From: Candidatus Helarchaeota archaeon
GTDB taxonomy: Archaea > Asgardarchaeota > Lokiarchaeia > Helarchaeales > RDOG01
Direction of reading: 5' to 3'
Length of the DNA: 64,000 nt
Assembly: GCA_019058315.1 (NCBI GenBank)
Contig: JAHPZH010000005.1
Location: 320,601-384,600 of the forward strand
Shown here: one piece after another, positions 33,015 through 35,620 of the stretch
Layout of the letters: every line of letters starts with the position of its first letter
How positions within the stretch are numbered: position 1 is the first letter of the stretch
The notes under the pieces: generated by a model
Databases searched by the model: none
Told to the model about the DNA's origin: nothing
The model's input: only the letters and a program-made list of their open reading frames with translations
Program-made: the position numbers and the translations under genes

Positions 33015-34919
33015 ATGGAAGGAAAAAGAATTTCATACCATGAATCAGTTCGAAAAGTTTATGAAAGAATTAAAAAAGATGGAATGACTAATATTTGGGA
33101 TCGATTTAAAGCTCAAGGGTTTGGAGATGATCCAGATAAAAGATGTCCATTTTGTTTAGGTGGAGTCAGATGTGATTTATGTTCAAATGGTCCTTGTCGA
33201 GCAGATGTGGCAAAGGACAAAAGAGGGGTTTGTGGTATTACTGGTGATGGAATGGCAATGAGAATGATGCTTCTTAGGAATGTTATGGGAGCATCTACTT
33301 ATCATTATCATACCGATCAAACAATAAAAACGCTTCGAGCAACTGCAAATGGAAAAACTCCATTCGAGATAAAAGAACCAGATAAATTGAAAAATTTCGC
33401 TGAAAGATTGGGTGTCGATACTTCAGGGACAATAAAAGAAATAGCCATTCGGTTATGTGATTTTGTAGAATCTGATTTTAACAAAAAATACGATGAACCC
33501 AGTGCAATAGTCGAAGCTTTGGCACCCAGAGAACGCATAGAGCTCTGGAAAAAACTAGGTATTTTTCCAGGTGGTCTACATGGAGAGATAATGTTTTCTA
33601 CGAGTTCTTGTTTGACTAACGTAGATGGATATTATTTAAGCCTTGCTCTTAAAGCGATGCGTTTAGGTGTAGCAATGGCATATCAAAGCCAAATTGTAAA
33701 TGAATTTTGCCAAGATATTCTCTTTAATATCCCCAGACCACATAAAATGCGTGTAGATTTAGGAGTATTGGATCCTGATTATGTAAATATCTTACCTAAT
33801 GGTCATGAACCATTCCTAGGTTTTGCTATGATTCTTCAAGGCCGAAAAAAAGAATGGCAAGATAAAGCAAAAGCTGCTGGTGCAAAAGGTTTAAGGGTGA
33901 TTGCAAATATTGAAACGGGTCAAGAAATGATTCAAAGATGGGAAATGGACGATGTGTTTTATGGCTTTACAGGAAATTGGATAATGCAAGAAGCTGTTCT
34001 CGCTACTGGGTGTGTTGACCTATTTGCTTGCGATATGAATTGTTCAATGCCAATCGACCCAAAATATGCCGAAAAATATAAATTCAAGCTAATTCCAGTA
34101 AGCGAAGTTGTCGCTTTTGAAGGTATTGAAGAGAGAGTCGATTATATTCCCGAAAAAGCTGAAGAGCAAGCAGCTCAGCTTTTACAGATGGCTATTGATA
34201 ATTTTAAAGAACGTAGAAAAACAGTTGACCCTGTTACTAATTTACCAACCAATGAAGCTATAGTTGGATTTTCTTCAGAGAGCATTCTGGAAGCTCTTGG
34301 TGGAAAATTAGATCCATTATTGGATGCAATAAAAGCTGGAACCTTGCGAGGAGTTGTTGGAATGGTTTCTTGTACAAGCTTGAGAGATTATGGTCAAGAT
34401 GTACATACAGTAAATATTGTTAAAGAATTAATTAAACGTGACATTTTAGTACTTTCAATGGGGTGTGGTAATGGTGGCTTACAAGTAGCAGGACTTTGTA
34501 GCCCAGAAGCAAAAGAATTAGCAGGACCTGGTTTAAAAAGTATATGTGAGCAGTTAAATATTCCACCAGTTCTTAGTTATGGAACTTGTACTGATACTGG
34601 ACGTATTGCAGATTTACTTGCTGCGATCTCAAGTGCATTAGGAGACGTTCCTATACCAGATCTTCCCGTTGCTGCGGCTGCGCCAGAATATATGGAGCAA
34701 AAAGCAACAATTGATGCAGTATTTGCCTTGGCATTTGGACTTTATACGTACGTGAATCCAGTTCCAACCGTAACAGGAGGACCAGATTTGGTTAAACTTT
34801 TAACACAAGACATAAAACAAGTCACTGGAGGATTACTAAACGTCGAAACTGATGTTATTAAAGCAGTAGATGGCATTCAAGCGCATATAGAAGCAAATAG
34901 GAAAAAACTTGGTATATAA
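33015..34919 (+). CDS. cooS: Anaerobic CO dehydrogenase-family protein, atypical CooS-V-like
   Basis: CPFC..VRCDLCSNGPC..GVCG, NGHEP, DMNC, VSCT, GCG, GTCTD, EYMEQKA; ANIET where canonical CODH has G(I/M)CCT. Confidence 0.9.
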   Translation: MEGKRISYHESVRKVYERIKKDGMTNIWDRFKAQGFGDDPDKRCPFCLGGVRCDLCSNGPCRADVAKDKRGVCGITGDGMAMRMMLLRNVMGASTYHYHTDQTIKTLRATANGKTPFEIKEPDKLKNFAERLGVDTSGTIKEIAIRLCDFVESDFNKKYDEPSAIVEALAPRERIELWKKLGIFPGGLHGEIMFSTSSCLTNVDGYYLSLALKAMRLGVAMAYQSQIVNEFCQDILFNIPRPHKMRVDLGVLDPDYVNILPNGHEPFLGFAMILQGRKKEWQDKAKAAGAKGLRVIANIETGQEMIQRWEMDDVFYGFTGNWIMQEAVLATGCVDLFACDMNCSMPIDPKYAEKYKFKLIPVSEVVAFEGIEERVDYIPEKAEEQAAQLLQMAIDNFKERRKTVDPVTNLPTNEAIVGFSSESILEALGGKLDPLLDAIKAGTLRGVVGMVSCTSLRDYGQDVHTVNIVKELIKRDILVLSMGCGNGGLQVAGLCSPEAKELAGPGLKSICEQLNIPPVLSYGTCTDTGRIADLLAAISSALGDVPIPDLPVAAAAPEYMEQKATIDAVFALAFGLYTYVNPVPTVTGGPDLVKLLTQDIKQVTGGLLNVETDVIKAVDGIQAHIEANRKKLGI

Positions 34920-34997
34920 TGATATGTACCTAAAAAATCCTCGAAAATTAACTTTTTTTTATTCAATTTAATATAAATTCTGAAATTAAAAATGAAT

Positions 34998-35013
34998 AAG
35001 GGTGCATACCCTT
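34998..35013 (-). terminator. Small perfect hairpin AAGGGT-4nt-ACCCTT followed by U-rich tract
   Basis: Inverted repeat immediately 3' of the SECIS-like hairpin, between convergent genes. Confidence 0.35.
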
Positions 35014-35055
35014 CCATCAAAGCACCTCTAAATTTTTTAGGTGTTTCTCATTTGG
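35014..35055 (-). promoter_or_regulatory. SECIS-like kink-turn hairpin (eukaryote/Lokiarchaeota type)
   Basis: RNA CCA-AAU-GAG-AAACACCU-AAAAAAUUUAG-AGGUGCUU-UGA-UGG: CCA/UGG stem, 3-nt bulge, AUGA..GA tandem G.A core, 7 of 8 bp upper helix, A-rich apical loop. Confidence 0.7.
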
Positions 35056-35488
35056 TTTTAGAATATTGCTTCGTTATTGGATGTTCTTGTCCAAATCTCT
35101 TTGATAAAGCTTTTATAAACTCGTCGATTTTTAATCTTGCATCTATTTCATTTCATCAACAACCAGCATCGGGTGTCAAGAAGACGGAGGAAGACGGGGG
35201 GAGATTTAAAAAAGGATCATCAGCAAGAGGAAGAAATTCTTTATCTTCAGTTCGTGCATCAATTCCTAAATCTATATAAAAATCTCCAGATTGAGGATTC
35301 CAAAGAAGTTGAAGTAAATTGTCTAATATTTTTATAGGAAATGGTTTGTTCCCTAAAATTTCTTTTAGTTTTAGATCTGCAGCTGCAATTGCATCAATTA
35401 CATTACCGTCGTCAGGGATTTCGACTATGAATTTGTTCGTGATCTTGAGAATTTTATCATGTAAAACCATGAGGGTTATTTTCTTCAA
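35048..35488 (-). CDS. MoaD/SAMP-like (ubiquitin-fold) protein, predicted selenoprotein with G-C-U-U motif (146 aa if both UGAs are read)
   Basis: ORF track stops at 35156 (..SSVFLTPDAGC). Codons 35156-35158 and 35153-35155 are TGA TGA, then 34 sense codons NEIDARLKIDEFIKALSKRFGQEHPITKQYSKTK to TGA 35048-35050, which sits inside the SECIS-like hairpin. Confidence 0.68.
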
Positions 35489-35620
35489 ATTTTCTCAACC
35501 TTTATCATTTTTTCCTTTTTAATATAACAATCTTGTGGATATAAAAGACTTACAACTCAAGTCAAAGGAATAAATATAAACCAAATATCATAAAAGAAAT
35601 TATAAATTCATTGAAAGAGG

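Follow-up and report, generated by a model that had tools for sequence, protein, structure and literature searches.

The gene described here lies on the minus strand of a 64,000-nucleotide stretch of DNA (hereafter the window) from a Candidatus Helarchaeota archaeon of the class Lokiarchaeia, order Helarchaeales (assembly GCA_019058315.1, contig JAHPZH010000005.1, positions 320,601 to 384,600). It begins as an open reading frame (ORF) of 110 amino acids (35156..35488, minus strand, TTG start) with the C-terminal residues SSVFLTPDAGC, which is followed in frame by TGA TGA and then by 34 stop-free codons. This is probably a selenoprotein gene, in which both adjacent UGAs are read as selenocysteine (Sec, U); comparison of sequences gives this reading a probability of roughly 0.8. 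The features of the locus, in window positions, are listed below; SECIS denotes the selenocysteine insertion sequence.

35051..35488, minus strand: coding sequence of the 146-residue read-through protein, TTG start at 35488-35486 (evidence: alignment, AlphaFold2 model, and the ratio of nonsynonymous to synonymous change, pN/pS)
Within it: beta-grasp body, residues 1-110, followed by predicted Sec111, Sec112 and a 34-residue helical tail
35159..35161, minus strand: Cys110 codon TGT, a conserved Cys after Gly (after Gly-Gly in Sec-less relatives)
35153..35158, minus strand: adjacent in-frame UGA pair, predicted Sec111 and Sec112 (TGA at 35158-35156, TGA at 35155-35153)
35051..35152, minus strand: C-terminal tail, 34 stop-free codons, translation NEIDARLKIDEFIKALSKRFGQEHPITKQYSKTK
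35048..35050, minus strand: predicted true stop UGA, which doubles as the UGA of the SECIS AUGA core
35017..35051, minus strand: Loki-type SECIS, AUGA at 35051-35048, GA at 35018-35017
35047-35039, minus strand: SECIS 5' arm, 9 nt, GAAACACCU
35038-35028, minus strand: SECIS loop, 11 nt, AAAAAAUUUAG
35027-35019, minus strand: SECIS 3' arm, AGGUGCUUU

Conservation of the tandem TGA and the tail

The tail lacks any in-frame ATG, GTG or TTG (35051-35152), and its GC content is 29.3% versus 16.7% in the intergenic DNA at 34920-34997. An earlier reading made from the letters alone (the sequence-only reading) had described the 110-residue ORF, the TGA pair, the 34 open codons and the missing start in the tail, all of which hold; its estimate of the GC contrast (about 28% versus about 17%) agrees with the computed values. 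Taken as a single sequence, 34 open codons in AT-rich DNA are mildly unlikely; it is the comparative evidence that takes the case far past chance.

The read-through product was searched, reading through stops, against 60 related genomes and the window's own genome. A homologue was found in 55 of the 61, nearly all matches carrying exactly two in-frame TGAs, and the alignments extend past them to about residue 138. In the homologues extracted from these genomes the two TGAs are adjacent without exception (32/32), and the final stop is TAA, TAG or TGA. A profile search of 400 genomes of the phylum detected the family in 138 of the 161 genomes that belong to the window's class but in 0 of the 239 others, with at least two in-frame TGAs in each of the 150 matches listed for the 138 genomes. 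Altogether some 180 homologues, at 25-48% identity, keep the tandem TGA and the tail; because the genomes are related and do not sample independently, these counts overstate independence. Thus the homologues retain TGA TGA, tail and downstream hairpin, instead of ending at Gly-Cys with TAA or TAG, the outcome named by the sequence-only reading as contrary to its proposal.

Between close pairs, pN/pS is 0-0.43 in the tail and 0.04-0.67 in the body. Such values in the tail argue that it is translated, and by this measure it is under purifying selection as strong as that in the body. The family motif of the tail is RL..(D/E)F...L...(F/Y)G....I...Y, with R118, L119, G133 and Y142 conserved (alignment A1); a second rendering of it is R-L-(D/S/N)-x-x-x-F...(F/Y)-G-K...Y. 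Selection on the tail contradicts the variant in which the first UGA alone is Sec and the protein ends Gly-Cys-Sec. It also bears on a possible dual output, in which termination at the first UGA would compete with Sec insertion, and the selenium supply would set the ratio of the 110-residue to the 146-residue form as a selenium-sensing switch. Two consecutive UGAs should lower the efficiency of read-through, as is generally known, and the truncated form is a complete beta-grasp by itself in the AlphaFold2 model; the selection on the tail, however, speaks for the long form alone, and a switch of this kind is improbable.

The start of the protein is also placed by comparison. The TTG at 35488 lines up with the homologues' start codon, ATG or ATT, which indicates that the protein has 146 residues, the length proposed earlier. 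Many homologues have ATT or ATA where others have ATG, 5-8 nt past a GGTGAT Shine-Dalgarno-like motif, which suggests non-canonical initiation; in the window copy (35486-35500) the TTG is preceded by GGTTGAG.

A reading without both selenocysteines would have the protein end at Gly-Cys or Gly-Cys-Sec, would invoke another route of read-through, or would regard the locus as an assembly error or a pseudogene. It could draw on the existing annotation: automatic gene calls shorten the product to 104-110 residues. A word-indexed protein search gave nine matches, all of them truncated ORFs without a name, and an exhaustive profile search gave 92 representatives, most of which stop at the first TGA as public gene calls do, while some metagenome callers read TGA as Trp (GCWW, HADWW). 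Against it stand the tandem TGA and tail kept in the roughly 180 homologues, a tail pN/pS well below 1, a tail with no start codon, and a conserved SECIS. In addition, TGA terminates 9 of the 43 long ORFs of the window, from which it follows that TGA is a normal stop in this genome. Assembly error is countered by a Logan contig from a sediment metagenome, possibly the source sample, which is identical over 34900-35600, TGA TGA included, at a depth of 18; in a soil sequencing run, 176 bases are covered, and among the runs listed as carrying the sequence none is of RNA. An explanation of this type is very improbable.

Three forms of the active site occur in the family: P-D-(A/S/P)-G-C-U-U, H-A-D-U-U-A and S-S-A-U-G-U-U-A, the last with three Sec. 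When the GCUU and HADUU forms are aligned without gaps, the first Sec of the latter falls on the Cys column of the former, which, so aligned, is a classical Cys/Sec exchange. A distant Sec-less branch, P-x-G-G-C-(I/S/T)-(T/S/G)-(D/E)-(W/F)-E-E-P...Y..F.KA, belongs to Bathyarchaeia, and the best match of the 110-residue ORF in the ESM Atlas is a Bathyarchaeota hypothetical-protein cluster. In both the Sec-bearing and the Sec-less branches the Cys110 column hardly varies, and it is occupied by Sec in the HAD-U-U subfamily. Since the Bathyarchaeia branch keeps this residue, the Cys after Gly(-Gly) would be old and the Sec pair added in the window's class. In a tree rooted on Bathyarchaeia, the window's order forms the basal grade, and all copies linked to arsenic resistance (ars) genes fall in one well-supported clade leading to the HADUU and GCUU-EKV subfamilies.

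The SECIS element and the selenocysteine machinery

The published SECIS of Lokiarchaeota (lokiSECIS) consists of AUGA, a 9-bp stem, an 11-nt loop that is A-rich on its 5' side and ends in (A)G, and GA, and is located near the stop codon (PMC4989117). The stem-loop of the window fits this layout. The kink-turn hairpin that the sequence-only reading had placed about 105 nt downstream of the UGAs is real; it begins 102 nt past the second UGA. Among 31 homologue genes with enough 3' sequence, 28 have the same layout 0-28 nt past the stop, and two of the three exceptions are first genes of tandem pairs in which the element follows the second gene.

Pairing in the main helix reaches 95% over 29 aligned elements, with compensatory changes at each of its eight pairs. 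This covariation was reached by none of 500 shuffles, and when the pairing was slid by 1-3 columns, the share of paired cells fell to 44-53%. The UGA stop codon of the window gene lies inside the AUGA core (35048-35051), and the same overlap is seen at four homologue loci (L019, L020, L024, L025). A single UGA triplet is thus predicted both to end translation and to form the kink-turn.

Tandem copies of the gene (L026, L027, L040:904-1905) use one SECIS after the second gene, so that four UGAs are served. One such tandem (G039) has a U-G-U-U copy, with three Sec, as its first gene, bringing the UGAs on one element to five.

The selenocysteine machinery, whose presence the sequence-only reading had proposed to check, is encoded in the window's own genome. 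It comprises tRNA-Sec (63.5 bits; called SeC with anticodon tca by ARAGORN), SepSecS (482 bits), which adjoins tRNA-Sec, SelB (287 bits) just upstream of both, and a full-length PSTK-like gene (170 bits, E 1e-49), which scores under the 290-bit equivalog cut-off. SelD is present with an in-frame TGA, i.e. as a Sec-containing protein (C11:696903-697751). The cluster at G000:C5:124363-128115 has the order SelB, SepSecS, tRNA-Sec, SelD-like paralogue, the Sec-containing SelD being encoded elsewhere.

Decoding probably proceeds as follows. The ribosome would read both UGAs (35158-35153) as selenocysteine, recoding would be directed by the Loki-type SECIS whose AUGA core holds the true stop, and SelB, tRNA-Sec, SepSecS, the PSTK-like protein and SelD of the genome would supply the process.

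A second short hairpin follows the SECIS:

34988..35013, minus strand: GC-rich hairpin AAGGGU-AUGC-ACCCUU at 35013-34998, then a U-rich run

In the family alignment this terminator-like hairpin is 81% paired with compensatory changes in five of five pairs, and it may belong to the Sec-insertion element or act as a terminator. Every Loki-type SECIS seen in the genome (34998-35013, L045-L048, L116) has, within a few bases after it, a short hairpin rich in GC, in many cases with a U-run; a hairpin behind the SECIS is not described in the lokiSECIS literature examined.

A covariance model (R1) was built from the elements of this family only. In the window's own genome it marked four further places, each 12-31 nt past an ORF with an in-frame TGA. 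One of these ORFs encodes a DSBA-domain protein with the active site U-P-W-C, and a DsbA-like selenoprotein family is already listed for Lokiarchaeia (PMC11227280). FlpD/VhuD-domain paralogues number 14 in the same genome (L114-L125 and two more), and three carry one or two in-frame TGAs each. R1 was run on 12 of the 14, two TGA-bearing and ten without TGA. A textbook element follows one of the two TGA-bearing copies, and an AUGA-bearing element follows none of the ten others. For the two-TGA VhuD gene (L125), R1 and a pattern scan gave no lokiSECIS within 1.5 kb.

The three other ORFs marked by R1 have no Pfam family. They are a 142-residue ORF at C5:240970-241395 with S-A-I-U-G-T-G-G (L046), a small membrane protein at about 42.1-42.4 kb of C10 with H-V-U-P-L-C and P-P-I-U-K (L047), and a 107-residue ORF at C2:186054-186374 with F-S-U-C-T-T-Q (L048). 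Among 40 relatives L046 has no homologue and L048 has one, which is without TGA; these two are weak candidates for selenoprotein genes.

Fold, gene neighbourhood and a possible arsenic function

The AlphaFold2 model of the read-through protein (pLDDT, the predicted local distance difference test score, 93.4; pTM, the predicted template modelling score, 0.89) shows a beta-grasp body (residues 1-106), a loop with C110-U111-U112, and, packed against that body, three helices (114-143), with pLDDT 97 over tail residues 121-140. In the PDB, Foldseek gives SAMP1 as the best match (probability 1.0, E 3e-3), followed by Urm1, MoaD and CysO. Alignment with VIA-align gives Z 8.7 for CysO (root-mean-square deviation 2.4, 84 residues) and Z 8.5 for SAMP1, and residues 2-111 of the model span SAMP1 from its first to its last residue. 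Since these carriers are aligned whole up to residue 111, Cys-Sec-Sec would stand at their Gly-Gly end, as the sequence-only reading had expected. The product would therefore be a single 146-residue domain, in which the last strand ends Pro-Asp-Ala-Gly, Cys-Sec-Sec follows, and the 34-residue helical tail folds back on a beta-grasp body of the sulfur-carrier type (CysO, SAMP, MoaD, Urm1).

No family was assigned to the read-through protein in Pfam at E up to 10 (ThiS PF02597, Urm1 PF09138 and MoaD included), and NCBIfam as of June 2026 lacks a model for it. The protein halves and ten relatives likewise gave no family in Pfam or NCBIfam, and the family profile has no match among PDB sequences.

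The fold raises the possibility that Cys-Sec-Sec holds a persulfide or perselenide for biosynthesis, in the manner of the Gly-Gly end of MoaD, ThiS or SAMP. The closeness of the beta-grasp to these proteins, the place of the triad at the C-terminal position of the carriers, and Gly-Gly-Cys in the Sec-less relatives are consistent with such a role; ThiS, MoaD and Urm1 clusters also appear in ESM Atlas features as weaker look-alikes (0.78-0.83). A free Gly-Gly terminus is absent, however, the tail being integral and confidently folded, and the Pfam and PDB sequence searches were negative as stated above. The neighbourhood is likewise unfavourable. In a survey of 53 loci (21 of Lokiarchaeia and 32 of Bathyarchaeia), in which recurrent families were annotated rather than every single neighbour, none of these families was an E1-like adenylase, JAMM protease, MoaE, ThiG or cysteine synthase. 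The selenium/sulfur carrier role suggested by the sequence-only reading is accordingly disfavoured, its likelihood being low.

The gene neighbourhood of the relatives points in another direction. Of 23 loci in the large sister family, 17 encode ACR3, ArsR, a thioredoxin-fold CxC protein or a DGC protein no more than 1.5 kb away. The usual order is divergent arsR, acr3, sometimes a CpaM/HgcA-like fusion and an HgcB-like ferredoxin, then the thioredoxin-fold CxC protein and the Sec-Sec gene. In one genus the order is arsR, acr3, Sec-Sec gene, and then an LMWP-type arsenate reductase (arsC), the best match of which is the thioredoxin-coupled type. In Bathyarchaeia the Sec-less gene adjoins ArsR-ACR3 in about four loci (ACR3 322.7 bits, above the cut-off), and nine loci have it behind genes for PadR, a small protein rich in Cys and His, and an ABC exporter. 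That two phyla share this context speaks for a role in the handling of arsenic or another soft metal.

Two components of these operons can be described further. The CxC protein is small, has no family match, and carries an invariant C-x-C; in 11 loci its gene immediately precedes the Sec-Sec gene. The N-terminus of some copies is rich in SCC...SCC, the model of the protein is a thioredoxin fold (pLDDT 80; thioredoxins, probability 1.0), and the own-genome copy of its gene is at C5:774405-774665 (L113:1474-1764). The fusion of a CpaM-like methyltransferase with an HgcA-like corrinoid protein, together with the HgcB-like ferredoxin, is found in arsR-acr3 operons of the sister family (L059, L064, L068; e.g. 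L064:5238-7407), and may be a corrinoid-dependent metalloid methylation module.

An arsenic function of the family is a tentative assignment, at somewhat less than an even chance, and for the window copy, which lies outside an ars operon, it is less likely still. The three adjacent soft ligands (C-U-U; His-Ala-Asp with U-U; U-G-U-U) would form a putative site binding or reducing a soft metalloid, and their retention in each subfamily suits three-coordinate As(III). Delivery of As(III) to the ACR3 pump would be one possible task of the protein, a part in the thiol/selenol relay of arsenate reductase another. In its specific form, the proposal is that Cys-Sec-Sec, U-U or U-G-U-U acts as a three-ligand selenolate site that captures As(III) or a similar species and hands it to ACR3 or couples to ArsC. 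This function would have arisen in a Sec-less, single-Cys ancestor shared with Bathyarchaeia and would have been upgraded with two Sec in Lokiarchaeia. The proposal is rather speculative.

The same neighbours could serve a redox carrier. Here Cys-Sec or Sec-Sec would close an eight-membered selenenylsulfide or diselenide ring, and the protein would be a dedicated reductant (of a thioredoxin-type arsenate reductase, or under peroxide or disulfide stress) and not a metalloid binder. Animal thioredoxin reductase has a C-terminal Gly-Cys-Sec-Gly centre, in which neighbouring chalcogens can close a selenenylsulfide ring; G-C-U equals the first three residues of this motif. An adjacent chalcogen pair, C-U or U-U, is common to both main subfamilies, and the genes of relatives adjoin the thioredoxin-fold CxC protein and the thioredoxin-coupled type of arsenate reductase. 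On the other hand, the Sec-less Bathyarchaeia relatives have a single Cys, which excludes an intramolecular dithiol cycle there. The third ligand (second Sec, third Sec or His) kept in each subfamily suits coordination better, and the fold is not thioredoxin-like. The redox role, the main rival, is somewhat less likely than the metalloid site.

Several points weigh against the selenoprotein reading and its arsenic extension. With respect to Sec itself, no homologue has Cys at both Sec positions, which is unusual for redox selenoproteins, and the Sec-less relatives carry Ile-Thr or Ser-Thr there. Rfam scans with gathering and E-value thresholds returned no SECIS family, in line with the reported failure of standard tools to detect lokiSECIS; likeness and covariation are the grounds for calling the element a SECIS. 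For the structure model, Sec was written as Cys (alignment A1). With respect to arsenic, ars neighbours occur at none of the seven loci of the window's order, the window copy included. The arsR-acr3 genes and the thioredoxin-fold gene of its own genome are on other contigs, so the arsenic link of the window copy is by homology only. The Loki ACR3 representative scores 270.6 bits, just below the cut-off of 282.8. The window gene is monocistronic, lying between a convergent gene of 634 residues and a divergent nucleotidyltransferase-like gene, and no conserved neighbours were found in the window's order.

Comparison with known systems

Selenoprotein genes of Lokiarchaeia with the eukaryote-like lokiSECIS include SelD, HdrA, VhuD/FrhD, VhuU/FrhA, Prx-like and DsbA-like genes (Mariotti et al. 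2016, PMC4989117; PMC11227280). The window gene shares with them the in-frame UGA, the same 3' element near the stop, the same Sec machinery, and the use of one SECIS for several UGAs, here even for two tandem genes. It differs from the listed selenoproteins in its adjacent Sec pair and in its beta-grasp, which is not an Fe-S, hydrogenase or thioredoxin-like fold, and the stop codon of the window copy, unlike theirs, lies inside the SECIS core.

Seven Asgard selenoprotein families have been found by homology to known families (Huang et al. 2024, PMC11227280), and a 2026 review lists 11 archaeal and more than 110 prokaryotic families (PMC13188914). The entries of that review include neither MoaD nor a ubiquitin or beta-grasp protein, and the motif strings CUU, UUx and xUU do not occur in it. 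The present family is missing from both catalogues and is unpublished within the literature searched, which did not cover subscription journals; the catalogue searches relied on homology to known families and could not find it.

More than one Sec per protein is known from SelP, SelL (UxxU), Loki PrxL.1 (UxxU), VhuD and the bacterial 'metal-binding double selenoprotein MbdU' (CU) (PMC13188914). As in these, more than one Sec would be served by one SECIS, and Sec has been proposed as a metal ligand in some of them. In contrast, UU or CUU is not among the motifs of the 2026 review, and there is no sequence relation to these proteins in NCBIfam. NCBIfam names with '_UU' were considered as a precedent for adjacent Sec and rejected: the suffix means 'double selenoprotein', and the motifs given in the review are UxxG and CxxU.

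The family adds to a short list of archaeal selenoproteins and is among the most widespread of its class (138/161 genomes). Since every public gene call examined is truncated at the first UGA or mistranslates it as Trp, the annotations need correcting. One compact SECIS for two consecutive UGAs, and for up to four or five in tandem genes, offers a natural test case for the efficiency of Sec insertion, located in the archaea closest to eukaryotes. A ubiquitin-fold protein with Cys-Sec-Sec, with relatives in ars operons of two phyla, makes a selenium-arsenic link testable. If the selenolate arsenic site were true, the family would provide the first vicinal Sec-Sec metal site found in nature and the first selenoprotein with a beta-grasp, and nearly all Lokiarchaeia would have it.

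With MoaD, ThiS, CysO, SAMP and Urm1 the protein shares the fold and a last strand followed by Pro-x-x-Gly, with Gly-Gly even in the Sec-less relatives. It departs from them in Cys-Sec-Sec and the folded 34-residue tail, and in having no free Gly-Gly, no Pfam match and no E1-like neighbour. Gly-Cys-Sec recalls thioredoxin reductase, but here it is not C-terminal, a second Sec follows, there is no flavoprotein domain, and the protein is an archaeal beta-grasp.

The arsenic metallochaperone ArsD has a thioredoxin fold, binds As(III) with the vicinal Cys12-Cys13 and with Cys18, and is encoded in ars operons. The protein described here has an unrelated fold, no sequence match to ArsD and selenols in place of thiols; no neighbouring ArsA ATPase gene was seen, and the window copy stands outside an ars operon. 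Like ArsD, it would be a small cytosolic protein with vicinal soft ligands and a third, and its relatives are encoded inside arsR-acr3(-arsC) operons.

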